DNA of 64,000 nucleotides from a virus (lineage: Duplodnaviria > Caudoviricetes): the IMG/VR virus record IMGVR_UViG_3300033074_001348, positions 13,313-77,312 of that record; one strand, written 5' to 3'. Positions 19,998 to 39,666 of the stretch are shown here, piece after piece. Position 1 is the first letter of the stretch, and the number at the start of each line of letters is the position of its first letter. The notes under the pieces were generated by a model. The model worked only from the letters and a program-made list of their open reading frames with translations. It did not search any database and was not told where the DNA came from. The position numbers were made by a program, and so were the translations under genes.

Positions 19998-20000
19998 CCA

Positions 20001-21419
20001 ATGGGCTGCAACTGTACTGCTAATTTAAGGGCTGATATCATCAAGAGATTTTTTGCAAACGACGCAAGGCGCCATGAGTTTGCATTGGAATTGATACGGA
20101 TTGTAGAGTGTCAGCAAACAGTCATGTCGCTCGATTTGCAAGAGTGGTTTCGCATCTATTTTGGCTTCTCAGATATTTTGTTTGAGGAGTTTTTAGCTTG
20201 TGTAATGAAGCGCCAAACTACTATGTCTGCTGAATTGCAAAAAGTAATCCGGTCACGATATTTCCCGACATCTCAGCAAATGGCACTTGACTTTATAAGG
20301 GTGGTGCTTTGTGCGTGCTGCCCGGGGCTTTGCGGAACAGATTTATTTATCATCAATACAAGCAACAATTATACGGTTGATGGGTGGTATTTAGACCAGA
20401 ACGCATCTAATATAGTTTACATGGAATCTGGTGAGATTACCGAAACAGTTCCTTGTGAAAGTGGCATTGCCGAGTACGGGCACTCCGATGGGAGGTCGTA
20501 TGAGTATCCGCATTATTTTAACGGAGGTGTTTGGACTTACTTAATTAAGGTGACGCAAGAACTTGTTTCAGGAACAGAATATAACTTAACTGTTGAGCTT
20601 GACACTACCTATAATTGGGGCGTTGCTTCGGGGGTATTACAGTATTCTGTTGATAATGGGGCTACATATATTGACATTCGCACGTTTGAGTATTCGCCAT
20701 CGTCTTTACCTCCTTATCCATTTACATTTGATGAAGGAACTAATGACTTCATTTTAAGGACTATCGTGACGCTTGAAAATGGCTGTCAGTTCTTTAATCC
20801 TTCTCAATCTCAGGATCAGCCGTTCGCCTGTTACAACTATGTCGAGTTCGAGGACACTACCGGTAATGCGTTCTTAAATTGGACGATCAACGGAGTGGCT
20901 ATGGATAACTTTAACGACATGGTGACTTTTTTCAGGGCTCTTGGGGATAATAATGATGGTGGCGTGGGGTATGATTTCACTACTGGAAATAAATTATTTT
21001 GTTGGTATGTAGGCAATACCACACCACCGGCACTAACGGTACTGGATTTCTTTGGAGACCCCGTTGCTTATACATGGGTTTCCCTTGGTTGCGGGGCTCC
21101 TGTATTGTCGAGCTACGAGACTACATTTACTGTGAGTGACGCTTCTGACTGCGCCATATACACGCTTACATTTTTATCTGGCGCATACTTGATATTAACG
21201 CAAACTACATCTGGAACTTACTTTACAAGTCCGGGTTACGATGTGGCTATTACTGCTGCTTATGACGATTTGTTAGGTCAAAATATTACCGTAGATTTGA
21301 CGGTGGTTGGGAATGACGTAACTATAAGAGTGAATAACTGCTACATACCTATTGAATCTATGCAATGGGGTAATTCTGATTTGTCGCAGAGTGGAACCGG
21401 AACATTTAGCCCTGTATAA
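20001..21419 (+). CDS. Putative structural/tail protein (472 aa)
   Basis: Cys-rich helical N-terminus with an internal repeat, followed by beta-sandwich-like segments. Confidence 0.5.
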   Translation: MGCNCTANLRADIIKRFFANDARRHEFALELIRIVECQQTVMSLDLQEWFRIYFGFSDILFEEFLACVMKRQTTMSAELQKVIRSRYFPTSQQMALDFIRVVLCACCPGLCGTDLFIINTSNNYTVDGWYLDQNASNIVYMESGEITETVPCESGIAEYGHSDGRSYEYPHYFNGGVWTYLIKVTQELVSGTEYNLTVELDTTYNWGVASGVLQYSVDNGATYIDIRTFEYSPSSLPPYPFTFDEGTNDFILRTIVTLENGCQFFNPSQSQDQPFACYNYVEFEDTTGNAFLNWTINGVAMDNFNDMVTFFRALGDNNDGGVGYDFTTGNKLFCWYVGNTTPPALTVLDFFGDPVAYTWVSLGCGAPVLSSYETTFTVSDASDCAIYTLTFLSGAYLILTQTTSGTYFTSPGYDVAITAAYDDLLGQNITVDLTVVGNDVTIRVNNCYIPIESMQWGNSDLSQSGTGTFSPV

Positions 21420-21420
21420 C

Positions 21421-21546
21421 ATGAAAAAGATTTTAATAGCCATTTTTGCCATACCATTTATGCTCCTGTATAGCATTTTTCTATTTGCTTGCGGGGTTAG
21501 TGCGTCTACTCAAAACAAAACCGATCAATACGACATCTATCTATGA
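21421..21546 (+). CDS. Small hydrophobic/signal-like peptide (41 aa)
   Basis: ATG 1 nt after the previous stop; MKKILIAIFAIPFMLLYSIFLFAC...; ATGA overlap with the next gene. Confidence 0.45.
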   Translation: MKKILIAIFAIPFMLLYSIFLFACGVSASTQNKTDQYDIYL

Positions 21547-22877
21547 AAAAAACCATCACCATCTTTATTCTGCTCTTTGTTGCATACTTCGCAGCACAGA
21601 GTCAATCTGTCAGGGACGAATATTTTAAAATCGTTGGAAAGCCGACTATTGTTGCGCCCACATTAGGCTCTTACTCGGTTGACTTTACCAACAAACAAGT
21701 TTGGCGATCCACCTCTAAAACTACCGCACAATGGACGCTTGAAACAGATACCAATATTATTAAAATGTACCTCGGTGGACGGGATGGAAAAGATGGCGCA
21801 GTTGGGCCACAAGGTCCTGCCGGTCGGGACGGAGTTTGTCCAAGTTGCCCTCCAACGAGCGGTGGTGGTATGTCATTCCCTTATAATATAGTCGTTGGCA
21901 CTGGTGATGATGCAGCTACCATGAATGCTGCTATCGCTGCTAACGTGAGTAACAACAAACCAATTTACTTAGTTGGCAATATAAATACAGGCATTTTAAC
22001 AGTTCCTAAAAATGCTTTTCGGCTCACCATAATTGGTTACGGGTCAAAATGGTACGGTGGATTAAAGCGCACTACACCCGCAAATAATGGAGAGGCAAAC
22101 GAATACATTGTCGCTCGCTTCATCATTGAAGGAATCGAATTTGTGGGAAGTCAAAATCAGGTCGCTTTGGATTTAGGGGCATCTTACATGAGCGCATACC
22201 GTGATTTAAAGTTTGACGGATTTTTGGAAGCGATACATCTGAGATTTGCTCTGAGAACATTAATTGAAAACTGCGAGGCGGTTAATTGCGTCAACGGATT
22301 TATTGCAGACATGGGAAATTGGACGGGTGCGGATAATGCAAACAGTCAATCCAATCACACCACATTTACTGATTGCCGTGCTTATATGCCATCCAATGGT
22401 CAAGTGGCATACGGAATTTATGCAGCTTCCGGTTGCGTGGTTCGGGATTGTATCATTGAAGGATTTGTCGTATCAAAGGGAATTGATTTTAACGGTAGAA
22501 ACTCCAATGTGGTTAAAGATTTTACCATTGAAAACGTGCATTTTGAATGTGTGAATGGTGCGACAACCGCATTTATCAACATAGAATCATTTGCCGGTGG
22601 TACAGTAACTATTAATAAGGCATTTGGGCAACACGCTTCGATGTTTCTAAAAGCAAATAGCACATCAGGACTTGGATTTGTTGACATTTCCAACGTTCCG
22701 TGGTGGGTTGCAAAAGGCGGTAAATATTTCAATACTTCAAATATTACTTTAAACTTTAAATACAACGAAGCATTCAGAGGAATAAACGCCTCTATGTGGG
22801 AAGGTACAGCCCCACAATTATGCGGTGGAAGTGGATGCGGTTACAACCGTTACACCTACACCGATATACCCCGTTAA
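21543..22877 (+). CDS. Secreted pectin-lyase-like beta-helix protein, paralog of the tailspike C-terminal domain (444 aa)
   Basis: Signal peptide MKKTITIFILLFVAYFAAQS, short collagen GXY run, and beta-helix repeats that align by eye with the 17844 ORF. Confidence 0.65.
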   Translation: MKKTITIFILLFVAYFAAQSQSVRDEYFKIVGKPTIVAPTLGSYSVDFTNKQVWRSTSKTTAQWTLETDTNIIKMYLGGRDGKDGAVGPQGPAGRDGVCPSCPPTSGGGMSFPYNIVVGTGDDAATMNAAIAANVSNNKPIYLVGNINTGILTVPKNAFRLTIIGYGSKWYGGLKRTTPANNGEANEYIVARFIIEGIEFVGSQNQVALDLGASYMSAYRDLKFDGFLEAIHLRFALRTLIENCEAVNCVNGFIADMGNWTGADNANSQSNHTTFTDCRAYMPSNGQVAYGIYAASGCVVRDCIIEGFVVSKGIDFNGRNSNVVKDFTIENVHFECVNGATTAFINIESFAGGTVTINKAFGQHASMFLKANSTSGLGFVDISNVPWWVAKGGKYFNTSNITLNFKYNEAFRGINASMWEGTAPQLCGGSGCGYNRYTYTDIPR

Positions 22878-22912
22878 TTATCATACACTAACCCCTCAAC
22901 ACCCCCTGTTAG

Positions 22913-23227
22913 ATGGCGTGGCGTATGTCAAAAGAAGCAACTGAGAAAGGAGGCGAATGGCTCTACCGTGCTGTCATGGCTGCGTTCGTCGTTTCTATGT
23001 GGACAAAAATCGACTCTATCGCTGTGATCGAGTCAAGGGTATCTACTCTTGAGCGAAGAACAGATAAGATTGAGGACGCTTTATTTGCTCCTGCCTTTGA
23101 TCGTAAAAAACGCATGGAGTCGCATCTTCGTGAGACGGACTCTGTGTATAATGTTTACGTGGAGAATCTTAACGACTCTCAGCATCAACTTATTTTGATA
23201 GACAGCCTGCTTACTGCATCTAACTAA
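22913..23227 (+). CDS. Holin/antiholin-like single-TM protein (104 aa)
   Basis: One N-terminal hydrophobic helix plus a coiled coil; start of the lysis cassette. Confidence 0.45.
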   Translation: MAWRMSKEATEKGGEWLYRAVMAAFVVSMWTKIDSIAVIESRVSTLERRTDKIEDALFAPAFDRKKRMESHLRETDSVYNVYVENLNDSQHQLILIDSLLTASN

Positions 23228-23247
23228 CCATTAAAACTATAAAAACT

Positions 23248-23667
23248 ATGAAAACAATTATTGCAATTATTAAGGCTGCGCTCACAAAGTTCAGCATGAT
23301 TAACATGACGCAATTTATCGGTATTGCTACCCTGATTGTGTCTTCGTGGCAAGGGGCAAATCTGATTAGCGCATCGGCTGTGCTGCTCATTACTTCTGCA
23401 CTGACGCTCATTCTGAAATTATGGCAAAGCACCAAAGAGCTCGTATCAACCGGCTATCAAATGGACTGGGCGGTATGGCTATCAGGTATTGGTGGCTTGG
23501 TGATAGGCTTCGTTGATAGCTTCATTACTGACGGCAGCATTATGTCGTGGCTATTTGGGGATAAAGCGAATATTGCTTTAATGATTTATATGGCCATTAC
23601 GATCATACTCCGAACCGGCTTCTCTAACCAGTCCGTCAATTCAGTAAGTGCCCGTAAAGCACGATGA
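23248..23667 (+). CDS. Putative holin (139 aa, multi-TM)
   Basis: About four hydrophobic helices and a basic C-terminus; upstream of the endolysin. Confidence 0.6.
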   Translation: MKTIIAIIKAALTKFSMINMTQFIGIATLIVSSWQGANLISASAVLLITSALTLILKLWQSTKELVSTGYQMDWAVWLSGIGGLVIGFVDSFITDGSIMSWLFGDKANIALMIYMAITIILRTGFSNQSVNSVSARKAR

Positions 23668-24215
23668 AGGGTTGGATTCCTCTGACCATAACAGGAGTGG
23701 TAGCAATATTGTTCCTGTTATGGTACTTTGATCCAAAGGGTAGGTTTACCGAGAAGGTGGACTCAAGAGATACTACTGTCATCAATCTGCCTCCGGTATC
23801 CATATCCATTCCACCCTCTTCGGCTCCATCCATCATCTATCAACCCATTCCGGCAAACGTAGACTCTCTTGCTATTGTAAGGGATTACTTTGCCATGCGA
23901 TCCTATGCCGATAGCAGCGAGAACGATACGGTGAAGATTATGGTGTATGAAAAGGTAGGGCAGAACAAAATTATTGACAGGAGGCTTGACTGGAAGTTAA
24001 AAATACCGATTACGACTGTAATAGAGCAGCACACAGCGTCAAGAAGGATGCTGCTGATTGGCGGGTCGGTTTACAGGGATAGTCTTACCACAGGGCTTTA
24101 TTTTAACGCTGCGTACAAAAACAAAAGGGATTGGATGTTTATTGGAGGATACGATCCTTTTACAAAAACTGGCATGGGCGGAGTGCTGATGCCGATAAAA
24201 TTAAGAACAGATTAA
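23664..24215 (+). CDS. Putative spanin-like lysis protein (183 aa)
   Basis: N-terminal TM anchor, Pro-rich linker, and amphipathic beta-strand C-terminus; lies between holin and endolysin. Confidence 0.45.
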   Translation: MKGWIPLTITGVVAILFLLWYFDPKGRFTEKVDSRDTTVINLPPVSISIPPSSAPSIIYQPIPANVDSLAIVRDYFAMRSYADSSENDTVKIMVYEKVGQNKIIDRRLDWKLKIPITTVIEQHTASRRMLLIGGSVYRDSLTTGLYFNAAYKNKRDWMFIGGYDPFTKTGMGGVLMPIKLRTD

Positions 24216-24228
24216 AACTGGGAGGGGT

Positions 24229-24711
24229 ATGGCAACAGACAGAAAGAAAATTATCGCTGAGTTTGGCGATCCGAGGGCAGACGAAAAGGCCTTTGTAAAA
24301 AAATGGATGGTGGTTTTTAATATCGGTAATCATTTTCCGTCACTACCGTTCAAAAAAGTTTATGTCAATTCGGTGTTGATACCACCAATTATTGAGACAT
24401 TCAAATTACTTTCCACAAGAGGTCTGCTTGGCGAGATCAAAAAATATGACGGCTGTTTTTTGGTTCGGTGCATCAGGGGTTATGAAAATCCGTGTGTCCC
24501 ATCTATTCATTCATGGGGCTTGGCGATTGATTTTAACGCATCAGACAACCCGCTTGGATTAAGCCGTGAGCAATGTATCAAAAAGGGATTAAAGCCGTTC
24601 TCAGAGGCATTTTTTCAGGTATGGAGAGAAACAGGTTGGGTGGTAGGTTATGACTTTAGCCGTAAAGACGGGATGCACTTTCAATGGACTAAGAAGTGGG
24701 ACACCGCTTAA
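24229..24711 (+). CDS. Endolysin, M15-family peptidase (160 aa)
   Basis: Zn-binding motifs SIHSWGLAIDFN and DGMHFQ. Confidence 0.85.
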   Translation: MATDRKKIIAEFGDPRADEKAFVKKWMVVFNIGNHFPSLPFKKVYVNSVLIPPIIETFKLLSTRGLLGEIKKYDGCFLVRCIRGYENPCVPSIHSWGLAIDFNASDNPLGLSREQCIKKGLKPFSEAFFQVWRETGWVVGYDFSRKDGMHFQWTKKWDTA

Positions 24712-24745
24712 AACCGAGAAGGTGTTTCTGAATGTGGTGAAGGGG

Positions 24746-24814
24746 TAATATCACGAACCTTTAACTGGTTGCAAATAAGCCTGTTGAAGATAAAGCTTCG
24801 TATATCTGATGTTA
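24746..24814 (+). repeat. 69-bp direct repeat copy 1 (attI-like site heading array A)
   Basis: Identical to 31155-31223; ends in GTTA exactly at the first cassette boundary (G24811). Confidence 0.85.
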
Positions 24815-24823
24815 TACACAACC

Positions 24824-25567
24824 TTAAAAAGACAGCGTTCCAATTGAAAGTTTTTGACTAATTCTATGGATTGCTTTGTCGTAATAAAATGTGTCTTTTT
24901 CAATTCCTGTAAGGTGCAAATTCATTTTATCCAATTTGTTTACCTTATCAACCGCCAACGCTATTGAACCACTACCAAAATGCGTATCAATGATTTTATC
25001 ACCATTGTTAGCATAGTTTTTCAAAAGCCATTCATAAAGCTGTATTGGTTTTTCGTTGGGGTGTATGCGTTCTTGCTTTTCTTTCATATTTTGCTGAAGC
25101 ATTCCGTGCCATTTCCATTTAAACTTTCTTACCGCTGTTTTAAATGAAGTCCAAGCAAGCTCACAATCGGCAAAATCATTGTTCCCGTTTTCTTTATCCC
25201 AAACTATCCAGCAACTACTATCAATAGGTAATTTTGAAATAAAATGATTTGCACCCCAAACAATTTGATTTTTAGAAATTCTGCGTAATTCATTCCAATA
25301 TTCAGATTCAGGAGCTGTTAAATCATTTCCTGAATAAGCCTTATAATCTTTGCTTTTTGCCATTACGCTACGAGTGTGATTTTTTGAGCCATCTTCGCCA
25401 ATTCCATACGGAACATCTACTATTGCTAAATCAAATTGTTTATCCTCAAAATCTCGCATTTTATCCAAGCAATCCGAAAGATATACGTCCAAAAAAGGCT
25501 GTGTATAACATCGGTTTGCCGTAATGGCGGTTGAAGTGCTACTATTGAGCTTTTGTGCTGTATTCAT
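24824..25567 (-). CDS. DNA methyltransferase, N6-A/N4-C beta class (cassette A1)
   Basis: DLAIVDVPYG catalytic motif variant, HPNEKP, and DTHFGSGS SAM motif. Confidence 0.85.
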   Translation of the reverse strand: MNTAQKLNSSTSTAITANRCYTQPFLDVYLSDCLDKMRDFEDKQFDLAIVDVPYGIGEDGSKNHTRSVMAKSKDYKAYSGNDLTAPESEYWNELRRISKNQIVWGANHFISKLPIDSSCWIVWDKENGNNDFADCELAWTSFKTAVRKFKWKWHGMLQQNMKEKQERIHPNEKPIQLYEWLLKNYANNGDKIIDTHFGSGSIALAVDKVNKLDKMNLHLTGIEKDTFYYDKAIHRISQKLSIGTLSF

Positions 25568-25636
25568 CTTTTCTACTTTTATTTAACTTTTGTACTAAAT
25601 TGTCCGCCACTAACGGCAAGCCGTGAACCGTTAGGC
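25503..25636 (+). repeat. attC-like site A1 (134 bp)
   Basis: GTATAAC-arm ggtttgccgtaatggcgg ... ccgccactaacggcaagcc-GTTAGGC. Confidence 0.8.
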
Positions 25637-25645
25637 GTAATGCCA

Positions 25646-26269
25646 TTAGCGTATCCATTCAATAGTTGGTTTGCCGACATAATCCTTGTCCCAAACATAC
25701 CAAGCATAAGCAATCATACCGCTATTCTTCATTTTTACCCCACCTTTGTATAAAGTAACTCGTTTGCTAAATTGGTAAACAGTTTTTAGAGGAAATTCCT
25801 TGTCCTGAAACATCTCATATCTGCTCTCACTTTCCAACCAAACAGTTTTTAAAAACATAGCAATCTTCTTTCTACCTTGCTTTTTTGCTTTCAATACAAA
25901 GTCAAGTGCTAATTTGTAAGGTGGGTTTGTAACTATGTTATCAGCAACTAAATCACTTTGCAAAAAATCAAGTTGTTCACCATATCCTCTATTTATCAAG
26001 TCGGTGCTAATAACTTCAAATCCTTTGTTTTTAAAAACTTCGCTTATATCTCCTTCGCCACAAGCACATTCCCAAATATTTCCGCTAAAAACTTCTCGTT
26101 TCAAAAGTTCTTCTACTGCATAAGGTGGTGTGGGGTAAAAATCCTCCGCTTCACGTTCTCCATTATTTCTGCTCGAACCAACTATTGATAGAGCTTTCGT
26201 GGAAGGCACTACGCCTAACACGGGTTTGGCAAAATTGCCGTTTTCGTTTTCAAATAAACTTTCTGTCAT
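25646..26269 (-). CDS. Putative adenine DNA methyltransferase (cassette A2)
   Basis: WECACGEG SAM motif and TNPPY catalytic motif. Confidence 0.8.
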   Translation of the reverse strand: MTESLFENENGNFAKPVLGVVPSTKALSIVGSSRNNGEREAEDFYPTPPYAVEELLKREVFSGNIWECACGEGDISEVFKNKGFEVISTDLINRGYGEQLDFLQSDLVADNIVTNPPYKLALDFVLKAKKQGRKKIAMFLKTVWLESESRYEMFQDKEFPLKTVYQFSKRVTLYKGGVKMKNSGMIAYAWYVWDKDYVGKPTIEWIR

Positions 26270-26338
26270 AATATCATCTTTTGTTTTTCAATTTAACTTT
26301 TGTGTTCGGCAACTTCGCCAAGCCCGATACCGTTAGCG
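26213..26338 (+). repeat. attC-like site A2 (126 bp)
   Basis: GCCTAAC-cgggtttggcaaaattgccg ... cggcaacttcgccaagcccg-GTTAGCG. Confidence 0.8.
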
Positions 26339-26356
26339 GTAATGCCAACAGACACC

Positions 26357-26857
26357 CTAAAATGGCAATCCATCGGACGGACTTTTATTGTCATCATAAT
26401 TTATTTTAGGCAACCTATCAGGGTTATCAAAAATATTTCCATCTACCTGCATATCACTACCGAAATAATCAATCATTGGAACTAAACTGCTATGGTTTTT
26501 GTAGTAAGAATTATCAATGCACCAACATCCAGTATCTTTATTGTAAACAACAGGATAATAACCAACAATTTTATTTCCTTCTTCGTCCGTTTCTTCATCT
26601 CTTAAAAAATCGCCTTCATAAATTAAGTTGCCAGCCCTATCTGAAACCATTGTGCAAATTGATATTCCAGTAGTATAGCTATCTACTAAAATATGGTCGC
26701 CAGTTCCAAGTTCTTCATTATCTCTTACTATGAAGTTTTGGTTTACGCCTCTATCGCAATTATTGTATAAGTCGCCAAAAACCCATAATCCGTTTGACTT
26801 TGCTCTGTAATGTGTATTTATCATTTGTTTAAATTTAATCATTTTAACAAGGCACAT
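26357..26857 (-). CDS. YopX-like protein (cassette A3)
   Basis: RAKSNGLWVFGDL...IYEGDFL...GNIFDNPD pattern of the YopX family. Confidence 0.7.
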   Translation of the reverse strand: MCLVKMIKFKQMINTHYRAKSNGLWVFGDLYNNCDRGVNQNFIVRDNEELGTGDHILVDSYTTGISICTMVSDRAGNLIYEGDFLRDEETDEEGNKIVGYYPVVYNKDTGCWCIDNSYYKNHSSLVPMIDYFGSDMQVDGNIFDNPDRLPKINYDDNKSPSDGLPF

Positions 26858-26859
26858 AC

Positions 26860-26990
26860 CGCTAACATAGTGTTGCCAAAATGGGGGCAGAAGTGCATTT
26901 AATGAACATTTGTACTGTGTTCAGCAGTAGTGCTTTTAATGGGTTTTTGTGCTATAAATCCCCCACTTCGGCAACACTCGACCGTTATGA
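26860..26990 (+). repeat. attC-like site A3 (131 bp)
   Basis: CGCTAAC-agtgttgccaaaatgggg ... ccccacttcggcaacact-GTTATGA. Confidence 0.8.
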
Positions 26991-27203
26991 GAAATGCTCA
27001 GACTGAACTTCCTCAATCAAGTAAAACTTCTCCCACATACTTTTTGCCCACTCTTCGGCTTGGTGTCTATGTTGAAACACCGCTATAATTTTATTACTCC
27101 CAATATCCAAACGTTCTGCATCTGGAATGACTGCAAAAGCACTTCTCATAACAGCCGTTTGCTGCAATGGCGGGTTCTGTGGTAAATTTGATGTTTCTTG
27201 CAT
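26985..27203 (-). CDS. Hypothetical protein (cassette A4)
   Basis: Starts in the loop of site A4; the stop TAA is the complement of the GTTA core at 26984. Confidence 0.6.
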   Translation of the reverse strand: MQETSNLPQNPPLQQTAVMRSAFAVIPDAERLDIGSNKIIAVFQHRHQAEEWAKSMWEKFYLIEEVQSEHFS

Positions 27204-27277
27204 TTTATTAAATTTTGTGGTTAAACGAAAGTCAGTGCTTGTAATCCGCCACTGGCAGCAATGCTTTTACGTTATGA
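27146..27277 (+). repeat. attC-like site A4 (132 bp)
   Basis: TCATAAC-ttgctgcaatggcgg ... ccgccactggcagcaa-GTTATGA. Confidence 0.8.
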
Positions 27278-27308
27278 GAAATTTTAAAAACCTTTCCCCC
27301 GCACCGTT

Positions 27309-27692
27309 CTAATCATCATCTTGCGTTGACAAAGAAAATGTTTCACCATCTTCAATATTCATAATTTTGACACCGCAAGAACCGTATTCAGCAATCCACA
27401 TTGGGGTATTTTCATCCATATAAAAATCACCGCCTTTGTATCCCGTAAAAGTTTGTCCTAAACATTCATTTTTTAGTTGTTCAACCAAACTTGCAACGGT
27501 TCTTGTTCCGCTTCCTTTTTCAAGTGCTAAATCTGAATAATATCCACGATATGAATGTGGTTCACATACGTTTTCAATTTCTTTGTCTTGTGGTAGTTTT
27601 TCAAGTTCTGAAATAAATCTACCAAGTGTCATTTGTGATAAAGAACGTTCTGCTCTCCATCCTTTGCTTAATTCATTAAATAATTCTTGCAT
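27309..27692 (-). CDS. Hypothetical protein (cassette A5)
   Basis: ORF track begins at GTG 27749; the ATG at 27692 (MQELF) has an A-rich leader and is the likelier start. Confidence 0.6.
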   Translation of the reverse strand: MQELFNELSKGWRAERSLSQMTLGRFISELEKLPQDKEIENVCEPHSYRGYYSDLALEKGSGTRTVASLVEQLKNECLGQTFTGYKGGDFYMDENTPMWIAEYGSCGVKIMNIEDGETFSLSTQDDD

Positions 27693-27740
27693 AATATTTT
27701 GTTTTTTAAATGCCCACCCTAAAAGGTTTTTAAAACTATC

Positions 27741-27834
27741 CCATAACACGGGTTTGGCAAAATGCCGCAGGACAGTTAGTGCTAAATTTCAAGTTTCAAG
27801 TAGCGGCACTTCGCAAAGCCCGAAACCGTTATGT
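27741..27834 (+). repeat. attC-like site A5 (94 bp)
   Basis: CCATAAC-cgggtttggcaaaatgccgc ... gcggcacttcgcaaagcccg-GTTATGT. Confidence 0.8.
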
Positions 27835-27846
27835 GAGATTGCTAAA

Positions 27847-28065
27847 TTATCGTTTATAATAATGTTTTCTAACACCTAAACCTTCTGATTTTAAATGCTT
27901 AAAATTTAATCTTTCTTTTAAGTTATCAAATTGTCTTGAGGTAATGCTGTGTTTTTTAATATCATTTGAATTTCTTAATTCATAAATAGTTCTTTTATTA
28001 TATTGTATCTGTACTAAAACATCATTATCTTCTAATAATTTTTCTAATTCTTTTATTGTCATCAC
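27847..28065 (-). CDS. Hypothetical protein (cassette A6)
   Basis: ORF fills the cassette body. Confidence 0.55.
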   Translation of the reverse strand: MMTIKELEKLLEDNDVLVQIQYNKRTIYELRNSNDIKKHSITSRQFDNLKERLNFKHLKSEGLGVRKHYYKR

Positions 28066-28091
28066 ATTTTGTTTTAAAAACCCACAACCTC

Positions 28092-28224
28092 ACATAACAA
28101 GTGTTTGGCAAAAAAGCGGGTTCGGTTATTAATTTAATGTTTGTTTTATATTTGAATGTTTAGTAATTAATCGGAAATTCCGTTTTTTCTTTCCGCTTCT
28201 TCGCCAAGCACTCGGACGTTACCT
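28092..28224 (+). repeat. attC-like site A6 (133 bp)
   Basis: ACATAAC-agtgtttggcaaaaaagcgg ... ccgcttcttcgccaagcact-GTTACCT. Confidence 0.8.
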
Positions 28225-28596
28225 GCTACCTTTCAGACGCTCAATTTCGGAAAGCAGACTATCAACGATTAACAGGCTTTTTTCAACCCACTCAACAGGC
28301 ACATCGTCCTCTAAAAATTTCTTATGGGTTTCAGTATAGTGGTCGTGGCTAATTAAACCAAGTGAACAAACCAGCCCTTTGCTATCAGGTGCAGTTAATG
28401 CCCAATGCTTCAAACTAAATTCCCTGCCAGTTCTTGAATTGACATAGGGCAATTCATAGCATTTATGCCACTTCCAACTATCAGGTAATTGATTTCTGAG
28501 TTTCATAATTTCCTCTACCGATAAGGCAGCAGGTAACACGGGTTTGGCAAAATCGGGGCTTCCGGCTTCATTTGAAATTATTTCTTTCTCTTTCAT
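28219..28596 (-). CDS. Hypothetical protein (cassette A7)
   Basis: The stop overlaps the GTTA core; the N-terminus reads through the half site (FAKPVL). Confidence 0.6.
   Translation of the reverse strand: MKEKEIISNEAGSPDFAKPVLPAALSVEEIMKLRNQLPDSWKWHKCYELPYVNSRTGREFSLKHWALTAPDSKGLVCSLGLISHDHYTETHKKFLEDDVPVEWVEKSLLIVDSLLSEIERLKGSR
28531..28558 (+). repeat. Half attC-like site A7 (left arm only)
   Basis: AGGTAAC-cgggtttggcaaaatcgggg, with no matching right arm or GTT core seen downstream. Confidence 0.65.
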
Positions 28597-28607
28597 TGGT
28601 GAGGTTA

Positions 28608-28868
28608 TTATCTTGAATGATACGGCGACATATAAGGATATTTGTAAGTTATATAAGTATTAAAATCACAAGGCATGACACCAATAAACTGCGTAGGTTG
28701 AGAATCTTCATACTTACGCCTTTTATCAATAATTGATGCTATTTTTGAATTAACACCCATTAAATCGCCATCGTAAAATCGAACTAAAATATAGGGATTA
28801 GCAGCACACGCTTTCCTTAATTGACCTACTGTTAAAGTTTTCATCTCATTTATTTTAAACAACCCCAA
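28608..28868 (-). CDS. Hypothetical protein
   Basis: ORF; the real start is probably the internal MKTL. Confidence 0.5.
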   Translation of the reverse strand: MGLFKINEMKTLTVGQLRKACAANPYILVRFYDGDLMGVNSKIASIIDKRRKYEDSQPTQFIGVMPCDFNTYITYKYPYMSPYHSR

Positions 28869-28893
28869 AGCCAGAACGATGGGGGTGGGTTAG

Positions 28894-29169
28894 TTAGTAA
28901 TTTATTACAATTTCAGTTTCGGTAACTTCTTTTATTTTAGGTCGGGCGTTCCTTGCTTCAATTACACAAGGAACTAAAACCATCTCTTCATACCAAACAT
29001 CATCGTTTTTATTCATATTAAATCCCTTGTATCTATTGTCAGCACCAAACAAAGTAATATATTTTCCGTCATATTCTAAACGGTAATCACCTGCGTAATG
29101 CGGTAATATTGGTAGTCTTACTTCTTTCATAATTTTAGTATAAATAACAAACCCCCAAGCCAAAGACAA
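28894..29169 (-). CDS. Hypothetical protein
   Basis: ORF; the real start is probably MKEVRLP at 29130. Confidence 0.5.
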   Translation of the reverse strand: MSLAWGFVIYTKIMKEVRLPILPHYAGDYRLEYDGKYITLFGADNRYKGFNMNKNDDVWYEEMVLVPCVIEARNARPKIKEVTETEIVINY

Positions 29170-29183
29170 GAGGGCTTGTCGGG

Positions 29184-29603
29184 TTAGTCTTCGTTAAAAA
29201 AATCTTCTATATTAGGATTGTTATTCCAGTTTTCGATCTTACCGTTTTCATCAATTTTAACAACGATATAATCCCCGTAAGACTCTCGATATAAATCCAA
29301 TATATTGGGAACATAACCGTCTTTTGTAAGAACGGTATTACCTTCTGAATCCAATAAGTGGTAAATCCCATCATCGCAAACTTTGTAATGAACATCAGCA
29401 GTGACACCTTTCTTCCAATTTGTAATAATTCCAGAATCAATATCAATATTTAATTTCCATCGATCCATTTCTTTGCATGGGATTAAATCGCCATGTAAAT
29501 CATCGACTCCATTAATTGAGCCGTCTTCCCAGTAGCGTACACCTGCATCCACTAACAAGGTTTTAATTTCGACTTCCTTTTCGATTTTGATTTTTGCTTT
29601 CAT
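29184..29603 (-). CDS. Conserved phage hypothetical protein (139 aa)
   Basis: Globular acidic ORF (GVRYWEDG, HYKVCDDG) downstream of a promoter. Confidence 0.6.
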   Translation of the reverse strand: MKAKIKIEKEVEIKTLLVDAGVRYWEDGSINGVDDLHGDLIPCKEMDRWKLNIDIDSGIITNWKKGVTADVHYKVCDDGIYHLLDSEGNTVLTKDGYVPNILDLYRESYGDYIVVKIDENGKIENWNNNPNIEDFFNED

Positions 29604-29621
29604 AGTAAATGTATAAACAAC

Positions 29622-29656
29622 GAACCCCTCTAAGCCGGGAAGACAGAGAGGGGTTC
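29622..29656 (-). terminator. Hairpin/terminator-like element, one of three related copies (also about 28858-28893 and 29146-29186)
   Basis: Perfect 10-bp stem GAACCCCTCT/AGAGGGGTTC followed by GTTGTTT on the minus strand. Confidence 0.5.
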
Positions 29657-29719
29657 AGTATGTGAATTAGGCTGATCGCCTGAGATTCCAATTTGGTGCA
29701 TCTTCCCGGATTGCAGGGG

Positions 29720-29757
29720 CAAATATACAAACAATTGTATAAGAAACAATACATTTG
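29720..29757. promoter_or_regulatory. Divergent promoter pair (TATATTTG minus at 29720-29727; TACATTTG plus at 29750-29757)
   Basis: Two TAnnTTTG boxes between divergently transcribed genes. Confidence 0.6.
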
Positions 29758-29771
29758 TAAAAAAAAATAAC

Positions 29772-31157
29772 ATGAAACTTAAAATCCTCGCAGCATCCTT
29801 TATTATCGGCTTGTCGGTTGTAACTTATAATGCAGTAAACTACGACCCCGTTCCATCCATTATAGAAGCACTCAGGGAAGGCAAGTCCGTAACGCTCGAC
29901 TCTGGGGTGGTTTACAATTTTACGGGCTATAAGAACCTCCCAGTAACATCGGAATTTAACTTGAATGGGGCAACTATTAAAGCCGATTCGATGCTCCAAG
30001 CCGAATTTAATGACAACCAATACTTATTTTTATTGGATGGCGGCTACATTCATTCTGGAGCAATTATCGGCGCATCAGGCAAGGTGTACAATGCTAAGGC
30101 GGGGTATTTTGGGGCTATTCAGGTAATGACGGGTGGTAAAATAAGGTCGGTAAACTTTAAGAATTGCGACAAATGGGCTATTCGGGTCTTTGGTGATCGA
30201 TGGTCACATAATGACACAACCTTTATTACATCATGCGTTTTCGATTCAATACCTCGTGACGGATCGGGATATGGTACATGGAATCAGCATGGTGTGGTTA
30301 TAGTCGATTCCTGTAAATTCAATTTCCTGCGTCATGCTTTTGATTGTGGTAGTGAAGGTAACTTAACGGTAATTCAAAACTGCGAGTTTCGTAATTGCTT
30401 TTACATTCCAATTCATCAGCATCGGTATGTAGGTGATTCGGTCGGGGTTGGATTGACGGTGCGTAATTGTAAGTTTTACGATACCTACATGCCCCTTGAT
30501 ATTGGATTGCCGTTTAAAGGCATGAACAGAATTGATAGCAACTATTTTGCCGGCAACTATATTGGTCGCATGGGTCGTGATACGATACCCATTGGCACAA
30601 ACTATATGAACGGTAAAGGCATGATATCTGCTCCTGAAATTATTGGAAGAAATAGCTATAAGGTGGGCGAGAAAATGTCACTAAAGATTGACAAGACTGG
30701 TTTTTGGAATAACGGTGTAACGAACAGGCAGACGACAACTACATTCAATTATCCAATGGTAAAAGTCTATAGCGTTCACACGGGTGGCATTGCTGACACC
30801 ATGACCGTTATTTGCTCTGATACGGGAATCTATACGTCCATGCGGGTTTTAGCAACCTGCGATATTGAATTTTGGAGTGGCGATAAAGCGGTTGGAGTGG
30901 TGAAAAAAGGAAAGGCGTATGACTATAAATTTTACTACTTCAAGGCGGATGTCAAGATCAAAATTAAAGGCAATCTTATAGGTGTAGATCGGGCGACATT
31001 CAACGTGGCAGACGGTTATAGGGCGTTACGGGTTCGTACGAATGTCGGGGTGCTGCATCTTGATAATCTATGCTACAACGGATGGTATGACACCTATGAG
31101 TTTGGACTTAAGACGAAGGTCAAGCAAGTGGGTGAGTGGGTGGAGGTCGGGAAATAA
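29772..31157 (+). CDS. Secreted parallel beta-helix (pectin-lyase-like) protein (461 aa)
   Basis: Signal peptide MKLKILAASFIIGLSVVTYNA; repeats such as VNFKNC, ITSCVF, VDSCKF, IQNCEF and VRNCKF. Confidence 0.7.
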   Translation: MKLKILAASFIIGLSVVTYNAVNYDPVPSIIEALREGKSVTLDSGVVYNFTGYKNLPVTSEFNLNGATIKADSMLQAEFNDNQYLFLLDGGYIHSGAIIGASGKVYNAKAGYFGAIQVMTGGKIRSVNFKNCDKWAIRVFGDRWSHNDTTFITSCVFDSIPRDGSGYGTWNQHGVVIVDSCKFNFLRHAFDCGSEGNLTVIQNCEFRNCFYIPIHQHRYVGDSVGVGLTVRNCKFYDTYMPLDIGLPFKGMNRIDSNYFAGNYIGRMGRDTIPIGTNYMNGKGMISAPEIIGRNSYKVGEKMSLKIDKTGFWNNGVTNRQTTTTFNYPMVKVYSVHTGGIADTMTVICSDTGIYTSMRVLATCDIEFWSGDKAVGVVKKGKAYDYKFYYFKADVKIKIKGNLIGVDRATFNVADGYRALRVRTNVGVLHLDNLCYNGWYDTYEFGLKTKVKQVGEWVEVGK

Positions 31158-31223
31158 TATCACGAACCTTTAACTGGTTGCAAATAAGCCTGTTGAAGAT
31201 AAAGCTTCGTATATCTGATGTTA
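31155..31223 (+). repeat. 69-bp direct repeat copy 2 (attI-like site heading array B)
   Basis: Identical to 24746-24814; ends at the GTTA core (G31220). Confidence 0.85.
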
Positions 31224-31232
31224 GCCGCAAGC

Positions 31233-31481
31233 CTAAGCGACATCGTAACTAATAGTTAGGTTTGACATTGCCTCAATTGTAAAAAGCAACTGACCTGCCA
31301 CATCATAACCATTGTAAACTGTTATCGTAAGGTCGTTATGATACCCTTTGCCGATAGTCTTTTCTTCTTCTTTAATTTCGTGTATCTTATCGCCAAATGC
31401 AGCATATTGGTACTTGTCGTTTACGGCAAAGTAAGTTGAGCCTTCGCCAGTTCCTTTTTCAATTGATTTTATTCGTTTCAT
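31233..31481 (-). CDS. Hypothetical protein (cassette B1)
   Basis: ORF fills the cassette body. Confidence 0.6.
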   Translation of the reverse strand: MKRIKSIEKGTGEGSTYFAVNDKYQYAAFGDKIHEIKEEEKTIGKGYHNDLTITVYNGYDVAGQLLFTIEAMSNLTISYDVA

Positions 31482-31509
31482 TTTTATTTGTGTTGTGAGA
31501 AAGGCCAGC

Positions 31510-31603
31510 GGCTAACAGCGGTTTTGCGTCAGGCGGCAGACAGTTGGTGCAAACTTGAAACATCCTATAAGCCGCCCGAACGCAAAGCCGCAAAACGTTA
31601 TCG
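31510..31603 (+). repeat. attC-like site B1 (94 bp)
   Basis: GGCTAAC-gcggttttgcgtcaggcggc ... gccgcccgaacgcaaagccgc-GTTATCG. Confidence 0.8.
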
Positions 31604-31933
31604 GCTATTTAGAAAATCCCAAAGTTCACCAGCATTTGACATTGGAATATTTTTACCATTATCTGTAACTTTTAAACGATAGTTTTCTTGTCCAAAATCT
31701 AATTCCCAACAGAAATACTCAATCCAACTTTGACCCATTGGACAAAGTGCAGTATCATTCATTGCGACTTGCAAAACTTCTAATAAAGCATTTTGCAAGT
31801 AATGATTTTTAGGTAATAGATTAGCTGTAAAACTTTCGGGAAACGCTTTGCCTAAATTTTCAGAAACAGAAATATCATATTTAATTTGTTCCTGTATTGC
31901 TTCAATTGATTTTATAAAAAGTTGTTTATCCAT
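31598..31933 (-). CDS. Hypothetical protein (cassette B2, gene 2)
   Basis: The stop overlaps the GTTA core at 31597; contains WIEYFCWELDFG. Confidence 0.6.
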   Translation of the reverse strand: MDKQLFIKSIEAIQEQIKYDISVSENLGKAFPESFTANLLPKNHYLQNALLEVLQVAMNDTALCPMGQSWIEYFCWELDFGQENYRLKVTDNGKNIPMSNAGELWDFLNSR

Positions 31934-32177
31934 TTTTATCTTCTTTTAAGTGGTTATATTGACCAGTAGCGTATTGGTGCAAGTTAGTTTCGTTGTATAG
32001 GCTACAAATACTTGACAATGCTTCTAACTCATCATTATTATTTTCAATCCATTCATCAATACTTTCTTCCTCATCAAAAGCATCTTTAACAGCAGCCTTT
32101 ACACCTTTTCTGACAAAGTTTTTTATTGCTCTTAAATCCGATTTTGTTAATGTTACATTTACATATTCTAATTCCAT
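31926..32177 (-). CDS. Hypothetical acidic protein (cassette B2, gene 1)
   Basis: Overlaps the next gene by 8 nt inside the same cassette. Confidence 0.55.
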   Translation of the reverse strand: MELEYVNVTLTKSDLRAIKNFVRKGVKAAVKDAFDEEESIDEWIENNNDELEALSSICSLYNETNLHQYATGQYNHLKEDKNG

Positions 32178-32219
32178 ATTTTGACATTTTAATTTTAAAG
32201 TTTACGACTTAAAAACAGC

Positions 32220-32350
32220 CGATAACAAGGGTTTGAACGCAAGTGGGGCAGATGTGATACTATCAACATCAGTGGTTCATTCATCATTTGTACTACTATC
32301 AACATTAGTGCTACAAATCCCCACCTGCGTCAAGCCCAAAAACGTTAAGT
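32220..32350 (+). repeat. attC-like site B2 (131 bp)
   Basis: CGATAAC-gggtttgaacgcaagtgggg ... ccccacctgcgtcaagccc-GTTAAGT. Confidence 0.8.
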
Positions 32351-32389
32351 GCAATAAAATTTTTAATAATTATTTTTCCCACCGCACAG

Positions 32390-32662
32390 TTAAAAGTTAG
32401 GAGTGTTAATTTTAAATGGAATATCTACTCCTAATTCCATCAGTCTCGACCTTGCGTCCCTTATTGTTATCTCCGCATCCGTAATTTGATTTTTAAGGTT
32501 TTCGATTTCTTCTTCGGTTTGTATTTCGTCGGTTTCCATGTCTCCGCATCTTCTACATATCACAGTATCGGGAAACCACTTAACTGATTCAGTACCTTCA
32601 TACAGCTCAAATATTTCACCGCATTTCTGGCACGGTGTAGGCATTTCAAATTCTTTTTTCAT
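32390..32662 (-). CDS. Small Zn-finger plus coiled-coil protein
   Basis: CQKC...CRRC followed by a heptad-like helix. Confidence 0.5.
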   Translation of the reverse strand: MKKEFEMPTPCQKCGEIFELYEGTESVKWFPDTVICRRCGDMETDEIQTEEEIENLKNQITDAEITIRDARSRLMELGVDIPFKINTPNF

Positions 32663-32685
32663 CTTCTCAATTTTTAGCTATTAGG

Positions 32686-32934
32686 TTATGGTTTAAACCC
32701 ATCCTGTCTTTCGCCTGTAACCTGAAAGTATTTACTTGGCTCAGACTTCAGCCACAAACAAAGCTTTACGAAGGTTTCCATGTCAAAGGATTTTCGGTTT
32801 TCTATTCTTGAAATGGTCGAGGCTGAAACTCCTGCAATTTTAGCAGCTTCACGGATTGTTGTTTCAAGTTCAATTACCCTTTGAGTTATCAGGTCTTTTC
32901 GGAATAGGTCGTAGTTAAATTTCAGGTCTTTCAT
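32686..32934 (-). CDS. XRE-family HTH regulator
   Basis: TIREAAKIAGVSASTISRIEN helix-turn-helix. Confidence 0.75.
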   Translation of the reverse strand: MKDLKFNYDLFRKDLITQRVIELETTIREAAKIAGVSASTISRIENRKSFDMETFVKLCLWLKSEPSKYFQVTGERQDGFKP

Positions 32935-32937
32935 AGG

Positions 32938-33549
32938 TTATGGTTTGGGTTGTAGGGAATCTAACAATTTTTGAACCTTATCAATCCAATCTTTACACAT
33001 TTTAACAGCCCATCCCGGTAAATGCGTTCCTCTTTGAATTTTTAAGTGCTGTTCATGCTGATAAATTAATCCTTTTACAAACACACCTGATTGCTCTAAA
33101 TATGATGCACTCGATCTAAAATTATCTACTTTTAAAACAGTGATAAATTCCTCAATTTCAAGTACTGCTTTTTTATAGTTATCAAGCACTTCAAATTCCG
33201 TTGTACGCTTAATTAATTTTACGGATTCCTCCAAAGCAGATAGTAATGGATTTTCCTGCGAATACAGTTCTAATGGCACATATTCAGGCTCATCTATTTT
33301 TGCGTTCTCCTCCCCGACCATTTTCTTTAAAATCGCAATGCCTTCGGATAGGGGGAGGATGCGGGTGAATAGAGTTAAAGCTAATTTCTCATCACTCAAC
33401 CACCAATATCTATTGTAAATGTCGAAGCCCCAAAAACAGTCAGTAATGATGTCGTGATGTCCACTTGCTTTTTTAAACAGAGGAATAAAAGCTACTAATT
33501 CATCTGTTGTACCGCTGCGCATGTCGCAGCAGAATGGTTGTGTTTTCAT
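32938..33549 (-). CDS. Hypothetical protein (203 aa)
   Basis: ORF in a tightly packed minus-strand operon. Confidence 0.5.
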   Translation of the reverse strand: MKTQPFCCDMRSGTTDELVAFIPLFKKASGHHDIITDCFWGFDIYNRYWWLSDEKLALTLFTRILPLSEGIAILKKMVGEENAKIDEPEYVPLELYSQENPLLSALEESVKLIKRTTEFEVLDNYKKAVLEIEEFITVLKVDNFRSSASYLEQSGVFVKGLIYQHEQHLKIQRGTHLPGWAVKMCKDWIDKVQKLLDSLQPKP

Positions 33550-33749
33550 GATTTATAAATTATAAATGTGAATAGGATTAATATTGCAACTATACCCATC
33601 ATCATCAAATTAACTGCGAGGTATCTACTGTATGAACCAAATTTCTGACCAAGCCACTTCCCAAAAGAGAATAGCGGACATGATAATATTAAAATGATAT
33701 ATAAAATAAGCAGTAAAGCAAACTCAGCTATCAATAATGGTTGTGTCAT
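33546..33749 (-). CDS. Small two-TM membrane protein
   Basis: Two hydrophobic segments; ATGA overlap with the next gene. Confidence 0.5.
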   Translation of the reverse strand: MTQPLLIAEFALLLILYIILILSCPLFSFGKWLGQKFGSYSRYLAVNLMMMGIVAILILFTFIIYKS

Positions 33750-33859
33750 AACTTCATTTTTTTATCGTGTGCATAACACCATCCATCCAACAGTTTCGTC
33801 ACGCCAAACTCCTGTAAATCCGTATGCCTTTCTACCTTTTGGAACTTTAATTTTCTTGC

Positions 33860-34066
33860 TCATACCCTCCCTTTCCTCCTCCCTTTATTTATCATTCTCA
33901 CAATACGGCACTCGCTCAACCCTGTGAGTTCTGATATTTTCCATACGTCCTCCATTCGGATTCTTCCGGGGTCTTCAAAAAGTCGGTAAACTTGCCTCCT
34001 TGAAACTTTAAGTTCTTTGGCAAACTGGTTTATGGTGAGCTGCTTTGTTATGAATTTTTTGAGCAT
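33860..34066 (-). CDS. HTH DNA-binding protein
   Basis: LTINQFAKELKVSRRQVYRLF. Confidence 0.65.
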   Translation of the reverse strand: MLKKFITKQLTINQFAKELKVSRRQVYRLFEDPGRIRMEDVWKISELTGLSECRIVRMINKGRRKGRV

Positions 34067-37107: not shown

Positions 37108-37887
37108 ATGACAAATCAAACAGGGCGCATCAGTCAGCGCAAAACAAGTCAGACTGGCTCCACATTGCCGGAGATCGGCAAGATTAAGGTAGGGGAAAAG
37201 CGTGAAAATTCAAAGGGTGTAGAATACCCTACCTCGCTTGATTACTTTAAGGCAACAGGCAACTTTGCTGCTGCGTTCAATGCGCAGTACGGGCAGAACC
37301 CTAAATCACTTACGGTAGCATTTATCAGTGATGATCTCAATGAGGTCTGTAACGAGCGATACGAGTGTTGGGATAAAGGGAAGCGATGGGGATGGGGTGA
37401 TGGAGAAACGTTTACCGTATGGGATGGAAAGGCCTATAAAGAGGGCATTGAAAAGACAGACCCGATGGTGACCAGTAAGAAGTGGGATACCATGCTTACG
37501 CTGCGTTTTGTGCTGCTTGATATGCGTGGCATCTTGGGATACTGGACGTTCCAATCGAAGGGAAAGTCAACCTCAATTCCATCTATTGTGAAGGCATTTG
37601 ACTATGTGAAAGAACGTGCGAGTACCATTATTGGGTTCCCCTTTCAGTTGGTGGTTGAAAAGAAGGTGGGTTACAATCCCGGAGACCCTAAAAGCTATCC
37701 AATGGTTACGCTTGTGCCTTGCTTTACCGAAGAGGCTATCGAAAAGGTGCATAATTACTTGGAGCAAGGAGGCGCAGCCAATCGCCTGAGCGCTAAATTT
37801 GTGAAGGCTCAGGAGGCGTTGGTGGAGCATCAATCTAAAATAATGCTACCAGAGAACACGGTAAATCCTGAGCAGCATGAAGGTTGA
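37108..37887 (+). CDS. Gp3-like (recombination directionality factor-like) protein, possible annealing protein
   Basis: LPEIGKIKVGEK...YPTSLDYF N-terminal motif; adjacent to an exonuclease. Confidence 0.5.
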   Translation: MTNQTGRISQRKTSQTGSTLPEIGKIKVGEKRENSKGVEYPTSLDYFKATGNFAAAFNAQYGQNPKSLTVAFISDDLNEVCNERYECWDKGKRWGWGDGETFTVWDGKAYKEGIEKTDPMVTSKKWDTMLTLRFVLLDMRGILGYWTFQSKGKSTSIPSIVKAFDYVKERASTIIGFPFQLVVEKKVGYNPGDPKSYPMVTLVPCFTEEAIEKVHNYLEQGGAANRLSAKFVKAQEALVEHQSKIMLPENTVNPEQHEG

Positions 37888-39258: not shown

Positions 39259-39666
39259 TTAGAATGGGAGGTCATTGTCGGGTGGTTCCTGAGATGATGG
39301 AGGCGCAGCGGTGGTGGCGGGTGTAGCATCTCCTCCGCTGCTCTTAACCCTTTTGGCGATCATCGGCCAGTCCATATCAGCCTTAATCTCCGTTACATTT
39401 TTCTCTACTCCGTCTTTATTATTGAACTTGCGGTAATTGATCTCACCGGAAACGGTAACGACATCCCCTTTACTGGCGGTCTTGGCGACATACTCCGCTG
39501 TCTTGCCCCAGAAAATAACGTTGTGCCATTCTGTTTTATCTACCCATTCCTCACCCTTTTTGATGCGAGAGGTGGTTGCTACTGAGAGGCTCACCATGTT
39601 GGTTGATCCTGCTACTCTTAGTTCGGGGTCTTTACCCACGTGTCCACATAGAAATACTTTGTTCAT
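39259..39666 (-). CDS. ssb: Single-stranded DNA-binding protein
   Basis: NKVFLCGHVGKDPE...KTEWHNVIFWGK, with acidic tail DNDLPF. Confidence 0.92.
   Translation of the reverse strand: MNKVFLCGHVGKDPELRVAGSTNMVSLSVATTSRIKKGEEWVDKTEWHNVIFWGKTAEYVAKTASKGDVVTVSGEINYRKFNNKDGVEKNVTEIKADMDWPMIAKRVKSSGGDATPATTAAPPSSQEPPDNDLPF

Follow-up and report, generated by a model that had tools for sequence, protein, structure and literature searches.

Two arrays of hairpin-bounded genes

The 64-kb stretch of DNA considered here (the window) comprises positions 13313-77312 of the 77.3-kb IMG/VR virus record IMGVR_UViG_3300033074_001348, a Bacteroidota phage that CheckV rates as complete. Its long series of plus-strand structural genes terminates in an M15 peptidase gene (24229-24711, +), after which come small minus-strand genes, and this minus-strand run is broken up by a single plus-strand gene of 461 aa (29772-31157). 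Two stretches of the minus-strand genes, one downstream of the peptidase gene and one directly past the 461-aa gene, are arrays in which hairpin-forming sites separate units of one gene or, in a single case, two. An initial annotation, made from the sequence letters, had placed eight such sites here and read them as an integron-like cassette system; all eight are present on the plus strand where it put them, and the two-gene unit is as it described. The interval of approximately 28560-31154, which lay inside its range, falls outside the cassette arrays.

The sites extend from a TAAC to a GTTA, both of which are invariant in the eight. Two of them are 88 nt long and the other six measure 120-128 nt, so that their lengths form two classes; these are the previously given 94 and 126-134 bp, which included three flanking nucleotides per side. 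The same two-class distribution is repeated across 410 members of the site family. All eight have a common single-strand fold, in which TAAC is followed by 1-2 nt, a stem of 10-12 bp, a small staggered internal loop, a second stem of 5-6 bp and a variable loop, with 5-6 nt ahead of GTTA. The folds bear out the earlier remark that the spacer on the GTT side is the longer by about 4 nt. The cores fit the pattern RYYYAAC/GTTRRRY (e.g., GCCTAAC...GTTAGGC and CGCTAAC...GTTAGCG). Besides the two spacers and the staggered internal loop, the sites show a conserved T.G pair and, at position 11 of the R boxes described below, an A/C mismatch; canonical attC sites differ in their unpaired features, with extrahelical bases and an unpaired central spacer that mark the bottom strand (PMC5027507).

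As had been proposed, the arms diverge in sequence yet keep their pairing. When the eight sites of the window are aligned, 86% of the pair cells are standard and 10 pairs are changed on both sides, a result reached by none of 500 shuffles. For 150 members of the family, 96.8% of the cells are paired and double changes occur in 15 of the 19 pairs; the 487 double changes found there exceed the 119 of shuffles and the 65 or fewer of slid controls, in which no more than 39% of the cells are paired. A covariance model (R1) built from the eight sites recovers them with E values of 1e-13 to 3e-28, and its other matches with E < 1 in the 64 kb are all weak reverse-strand echoes of the same eight. Sites were also sought with hidden Markov models (HMMs) of the arms, run with nhmmer. 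With the arm HMMs a ninth, partial site is seen at 28527-28558, where the left arm is present and the right arm is absent; this half site and a 69-nt direct repeat that opens both arrays had been overlooked in the initial annotation. No family matching the cassette sites was found in Rfam.

R boxes, cassette boundaries and the crossover point

Each site is flanked by boxes, R'' before it and R' after it, that are specific to the neighboring cassettes. In eight of the nine units of the window, the R' that follows site n can pair with the R'' that precedes site n+1 over 9-10 contiguous nucleotides (e.g., GTTAGGCGTA...TACGCCTAAC and GTTAGCGGTA...TACCGCTAAC). Across the family the complementarity extends over 15 nt, with a fixed exception at position 11, where R' has A, R'' has C, and no more than 0-4% of the units are complementary. 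Based on the 12 positions beyond GTT/AAC, at least 10 match in 58 of 117 viral units and 40 of 74 bacterial units, and the same level is reached by only 1 of 236 viral and 2 of 171 bacterial controls in which the boxes come from the same site. Boxes that lie several hundred bases apart, pair with each other, and meet only in an excised circle are a trait of integron cassettes.

Homologous units that occur in other contexts locate the boundaries. In model orientation, the right-hand hairpins of such units are 84-95% identical in 9 of 11 pairs, and 70-72% identical in two diverged sets; the left-hand hairpins are 47-76% identical, and the outer flanks are unrelated. These comparisons of sequences support the view that the sites are recombination sites and that each unit moves with exactly one of them, the right-hand hairpin. 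Cassette 2 has a counterpart in a phage contig (L024) that is 97.6% identical and has different neighbors, with an alignment that runs from CGTTA of the left site to GTTA of the right site. The homologue of cassette 1 in L195 begins exactly at the G at 24811, and that of cassette 3 in L095 begins at 26331/2, which is again the G, although 250 nt of flank were offered in each case. A metagenome contig (L272) that carries the 461-aa gene (96.7% identical) and the 69-nt array leader (100%) switches immediately past GATG|TTA to a different antisense open reading frame (ORF). Because the cassette homologues and this contig break there, we take G|TT to be the crossover point. Breakpoints away from GTT were what the initial annotation had listed as speaking against its reading; the breaks found are the opposite, and covariation is present.

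The leader itself (24746-24814 and 31155-31223) is an exact direct repeat heading both arrays, and the identity ceases past its GTTA. In both arrays the leader junction is a non-hairpin that ends in G|TTA and is not a repeat of the site, and no recombinase adjoins it. Sequences matching the leader were not found in IMG/VR, and L272 is the one metagenome contig in which it was found. The junction appears to behave like an attI-type entry point.

The arrays are compact (Table 1). Three antisense cargo ORFs have as their TAA stop the TTA of their own G|TTA box (26985-26987, 28219-28221 and 31598-31600), and the cassettes are therefore packed up to the first base. At the end of array 1, the half site of cassette 7 keeps R'' and L'' along with the start of the loop, including its ATG, and has lost L' and R'. 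Array 2 ends at cassette 9, because the next R' box has no partner downstream.

Table 1. Features of the two arrays. Sites (S1-S8) are on the plus strand, and the first coordinate of each site span is that of TAAC.
Feature	Coordinates	Strand	Cargo	Site, TAAC..GTTA	G of G|TTA	R boxes and remarks
Leader repeat, copy A (69 nt)	24746-24814	+			24811	Ends GATG|TTA; downstream of M15 peptidase gene
Cassette 1	24812-25630	-	24824-25567 (-), N6/N4 DNA methyltransferase, PF01555	S1, 25506-25633	25630	R'/R'' GTTATACACA / TGTGTATAAC, 14/15 match
Cassette 2	25631-26332	-	25646-26269 (-), DNA methyltransferase, phrog_799	S2, 26216-26335	26332	ATG in S2 loop
Cassette 3	26333-26984	-	26357-26857 (-), YopX-like, PF09643	S3, 26863-26987	26984	10 contiguous matches
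Cassette 4	26985-27271	-	26985-27203 (-), 72 aa, no assigned function	S4, 27149-27274	27271	14/15 match; ATG in S4 loop
Cassette 5	27272-27828	-	27309-27692 (-), 127 aa, phrog_12889	S5 (short class), 27744-27831	27828	
Cassette 6	27829-28218	-	27847-28065 (-), 72 aa	S6, 28095-28221	28218	
Cassette 7 (truncated)	28219-28600	-	28219-28596 (-), 125 aa	Half site, 28527-28558		R' GTTACCTGCT complementary to R'' AGCAGGTAAC; end of array 1
Leader repeat, copy B (69 nt)	31155-31223	+			31220	Directly past stop of 461-aa gene
Cassette 8	31221-31597	-	31233-31481 (-), 82 aa	S7 (short class), 31513-31600	31597	13/15 match
Cassette 9 (two ORFs)	31598-32344	-	31598-31933 (-), 111 aa, phrog_28377; 31926-32177 (-), 83 aa	S8, 32223-32347	32344	

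Three further small minus-strand genes come after the half site, in the region 28600-29700 (28608-28868, 28894-29169 and 29184-29603). Between them are G+C-rich hairpins unlike the cassette sites and a repeated 32-nt upstream motif (29124 and 29597). A homologue of the 29184-29603 gene adjoins a short-class site in two other loci (L016 and L043), and the genes of this region may be decayed cassettes. Elsewhere in the window, the structural module contains a single ORF of 2492 aa (7851-15329, +).

Spread of the site family and orientation of the cargo

The sites are common in viruses and in Bacteroidota. A 19-mer (TAACACGGGTTTGGCAAAA) is present in at least 120 IMG/VR contigs, and the covariance-model scan that the initial annotation had suggested, run with R1 on those loci, gives 304 sites in 100 viral loci, often as arrays. 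A 17-mer occurs in at least 120 genome contigs, which are mostly from Bacteroidota (Flavobacterium, Chryseobacterium, Algoriphagus, Chitinophaga and Saprospiraceae). Five whole Bacteroidota genomes contain 9-53 sites each, including an array of 17 sites within 10 kb of Flavobacterium silvisoli. For the phage itself, megablast of window positions 20000-34000 against GenBank phages gives a sole match, to 114 nt of methyltransferase, and the relatives found through the M15 peptidase are at most 46% identical and were found to have no sites.

Some members of the family deserve separate mention. In more than 10 other viral loci, identity of 91-97% to the short-class site S5 extends over its 45-nt left flank (27694-27743), which forms the leader of the antisense gene and looks like a part of that site subfamily. 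Arrays are also seen on contigs binned to metagenome-assembled genomes (MAGs) from outside the Bacteroidota (L150, L128, L131 and L167; Nitrosotalea, Comamonas, Gammaproteobacteria and Methylococcaceae), with at least seven sites in L150; misbinning of contigs from phages or Bacteroidota is the likeliest reason. Contig 57 of a Bacteroidota MAG has a 23-kb chromosomal array, at the distal end of which are an HNH protein, an IS91-family Y2 transposase and a 295-aa Xer-like recombinase (L248:13137-16480); this group is probably a separate mobile element.

The orientation of the cargo differs between phage and bacterial arrays. Among 114 phage units, 104 have it antisense relative to the site, including every unit of the window; in bacterial arrays of the same site family it is on the strand of the site in 60 of 74 units, with the ATG right past the 10-nt core of R'. 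Where a phage site is of the long class, the antisense cargo has its first in-frame ATG inside the hairpin loop in 101 of 114 cases, 36-66 nt before the crossover, and for short-class sites this ATG is just outside the site. The conserved arm is read in two frames, which gives leader peptides such as ...NGNFAKPVL... or ...ITEQPFCQTRV.... In cassette 2 and its L024 homologue, the in-frame loop ATG is kept despite different loop sequences. We infer that translation of the antisense cargo truly begins at the loop ATG. The earlier picture of simple promoterless ORFs placed before an attC site does not hold, since most of the ORFs presumably begin within the loop of their own site. A search of the loops by eye for promoter boxes of the Bacteroidota type gave near-matches only.

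Sites that are intergenic and whose loops so regularly provide the start codon and leader of an antisense gene might basically be regulatory repeats, such as terminator or leader hairpins. The shuffling of genes would then reflect mere homologous recombination between them, for which the similarity of the arms is sufficient, in line with what has been proposed for PeSL elements in T4-type phages. These elements, reportedly described by Arbiol et al. in 2010, are said to consist of a promoter plus stem-loop repeats and to act by homologous recombination. We consider this explanation very unlikely here, because the breakpoints are at G|TT rather than scattered within the repeat, and the unit-specific complementarity of R' and R'' over several hundred nucleotides would have no role in a purely regulatory element. 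In addition, the leader junction is no copy of the site, and tyrosine recombinases are found at the heads of related arrays.

Recombinases, a proposed mechanism and related systems

Directly upstream of the F. silvisoli array is a tyrosine recombinase of 580 aa, which includes a 300-aa N-terminal extension, together with a DRT-like reverse transcriptase. The latter (Drt4/Drt3b, 509 aa, L247:4145-5674, +; F. silvisoli contig 13) lies between the recombinase and the first of the 17 sites, and could be either a defence cassette or a component of the system. Among the five genomes, an IntI-like tyrosine recombinase is located approximately 1-2 kb or less upstream of the array in G001, G004 and G005, and 7.8 kb upstream in G002; the homologues in G002, G004 and G005 are 41-45% identical to the F. 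silvisoli enzyme. The best NCBIfam model for the F. silvisoli recombinase is integron integrase, below its cut-off, and its best solved relative is VchIntIA (2a3v). The alignment to VchIntIA is in two pieces, and at the IntI-specific insertion 29 residues replace 71.

Our preferred interpretation, to which we assign a probability of roughly 0.8, is that the two arrays are mobile gene cassettes of an integron-type system common to Bacteroidota and their phages, and that in this phage they are orphan substrates for a recombinase supplied in trans. In site orientation, a cassette consists of TT, 12 more nucleotides of cassette-specific R', the cargo, a 15-nt R'' ending in TAAC, the hairpin, and a final G. 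Once a cassette is excised as a circle, its own R' and R'' would pair with each other and so close the hairpin. With no matching enzyme in the phage, the arrays would be passive, a state that resembles that of a CALIN (attC sites in a cluster that has no integron integrase). A tyrosine recombinase in trans, from the host chromosome or a co-infecting phage, would excise, insert and swap the cassettes, and this enzyme would be of the Xer/IntI-like type seen at the heads of such arrays elsewhere. It would probably act on a folded single strand during phage replication, if the reaction still continues in this phage. The cargo, about ten genes that encode two DNA methyltransferases and one YopX-like protein besides small proteins of no known type, fits a shuffled accessory or anti-defence set. 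The integron-type reading of the initial annotation is thus upheld by the conserved structure, the cassettes' own R'/R'' repeats, the breaks at G|TT, and the arrays of the same family, some of them beside a tyrosine recombinase. Its further suggestion of a phage-borne system for capturing and shuffling genes needs correction: the phage, having no tyrosine recombinase, cannot capture and shuffle by itself.

Several observations weigh against this interpretation. No PF00589 or other tyrosine recombinase gene was found in the present phage, and of 39 array-bearing viral records just six contain a PF00589 gene, so that present-day activity in this phage is unproven. None of the recombinases adjoining arrays reaches the TIGR02249 cut-off, and the IntI insertion of about 40 aa is absent from them. 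According to PMC8138268 and PMC7790495, this insertion is tied to single-strand recombination of attC sites, and a folded single-strand mechanism may not apply here because the array-linked recombinases lack it; in the subgroup of integron-like recombinases, the insertion is "not fully conserved" (Smyshlyaev et al., PMC8138268). DNA folding energies favored neither strand of the sites, and it is by adjacency only that a recombinase would be linked to them. Finally, among the six sites of Qi et al. (2023, PMC9892861), attC1 of the Polaribacter phage P12002L, which has the same architecture, is the sole one that lacks a reported verified IntI1 junction. This fits a different enzyme, and fits inactivity as well.

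Four of the six viral PF00589 genes encode Xer-like proteins. The two such ORFs that were read are 294 and 298 aa long and have no insertion region, and one phage protein is 38% identical to the catalytic domain of the bacterial enzyme. Three of the four Xer-like matches have a site on the array-upstream side at a distance of approximately 0.5-1.1 kb (the fourth case was not confirmed), and in these three the G|TTA of the first cassette is 40-60 nt from the start codon of the recombinase.

A different enzyme might be sought in the phage itself. Its genome, which looks like that of a lytic type, carries a 224-aa resolvase-type serine recombinase (39730-40404, -) and a protein like the Gp3 recombination directionality factor (37108-37887, +) at 5-8 kb from array 2, with an SSB gene nearby (39259-39666). 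The sites of serine recombinases are double-stranded, and the crossover is a central one of 2 bp. The action of this protein on the sites would leave the covariation of the hairpins unexplained, and a resolvase-family gene is present in only one of 39 other array-bearing viral records; neither this protein nor the Gp3-like one is associated with the arrays in other phages. No Y1 HUH transposase (PF01797) was found in the phage, unlike the situation for hairpin elements of the REP/RAYT or IS200/IS605 type. Action on the sites by the serine recombinase, or by some other phage enzyme that escaped recognition, is extremely unlikely.

Returning to cassettes served in trans, we lean, with some reserve, towards a broader proposal, that they belong to a separate and widespread integron analogue of Bacteroidota and their phages. 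Such an analogue would use an Xer-like tyrosine recombinase without the I2 insertion, which is taken to have enabled single-strand attC recombination, and phage cassettes would be mirror images with antisense cargo, the loop of the hairpin giving a start codon and a leader of 12-20 residues in either of two frames; phages without a recombinase would swap anti-defence genes with a borrowed enzyme. Integrons are regarded as almost missing from Bacteroidetes and as dependent on the IntI-specific insertion. If the proposal is correct, the known range of integron-type gene capture would grow by a major phylum together with its viruses, in which a Xer-like enzyme of simpler make does the work, and the system would offer a natural test of the evolution of single-strand hairpin recombination. 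It would also explain the swapping of methyltransferases and other accessory genes by lytic phages of Flavobacteriia and relatives, and in the present phage would mark recent, exchangeable gene additions.

CALINs in virulent phages are already published, including P12002L with its methyltransferase cassettes (Qi et al. 2023, PMC9892861). Like the window, P12002L has lysis genes on one strand followed by antisense methyltransferase cassettes between TAAC...GTTA hairpins; in contrast to the window sites, its sites are approximately 70 nt long and have weak R1 scores. Going by the primer sequence, the attC1 of Qi et al. corresponds to the R1 hit at 29999-30068, and their attC2 is the array-leading junction at 29175-29243; this junction ends in G|TTAGGCAC, and its pairing partner is the attC1 R'' box (GTTAGGCAC in attC2 is complementary to GTGCCTAAC in attC1). 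These authors took the sites for classical attC sites usable by IntI1, and attC1 was called by HattCI (PMC9892861); the spread of the family in Bacteroidota, the antisense rule and a non-IntI recombinase are not part of their account. A description of this Bacteroidota site variant was not found in the literature, the coverage of which is incomplete, so that novelty is not proven.

The P12002L results bear on whether the arrays could be classical remnants, that is, ordinary CALINs from a host integron that are recombined by a canonical IntI with the I2 insertion. In favor of this, several of the attC sites carried by phages are usable by IntI1 (Qi et al. 2023, PMC9892861), RYYYAAC/GTTRRRY describes the R boxes, and VchIntIA is the closest solved structure to the bacterial recombinase. 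This reading is nevertheless improbable, given the sub-threshold, insertion-less recombinases next to the arrays and the lack of a reported, verified IntI1 junction for attC1. In addition, only one complete integron was reported in Bacteroidetes with IntegronFinder 2.0, yet these arrays are common there.

Overall, the cassettes resemble those of classical and sedentary chromosomal integrons in that they have imperfect palindromes with AAC/GTT cores, whose structure is kept more than their sequence, a crossover at G|TT, and a cassette composed of cargo and one site, with R' and R'' pairing in the circle only. The long arrays in host chromosomes are a further likeness, as are the tyrosine recombinase and the non-hairpin leader junction at array heads. 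The system is nonetheless "non-canonical", as the initial annotation had it, and on more grounds than the spacers (1-2 and 5-6 nt). The R boxes are of 15 nt with a fixed A/C mismatch, and the recombinases, 294-298 aa in phages and 580 aa in bacteria, are without the IntI-specific insertion. In addition, phage cargo is antisense and presumably starts in the loop of the site, whereas classical cassettes have sense cargo with attC at the 3' end. Compared with a complete integron, this phage lacks a recombinase; with eight sites (called here by R1) and no integrase, it would operationally fit the definition of a CALIN (at least two attC sites, as called by the attC model of IntegronFinder, and no integron integrase nearby). 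As in PeSL elements, repeated stem-loops flank small accessory genes in plastic phage regions and are linked to shuffling, but in the present arrays breaks occur site-specifically at G|TT and each cassette has boxes of its own.

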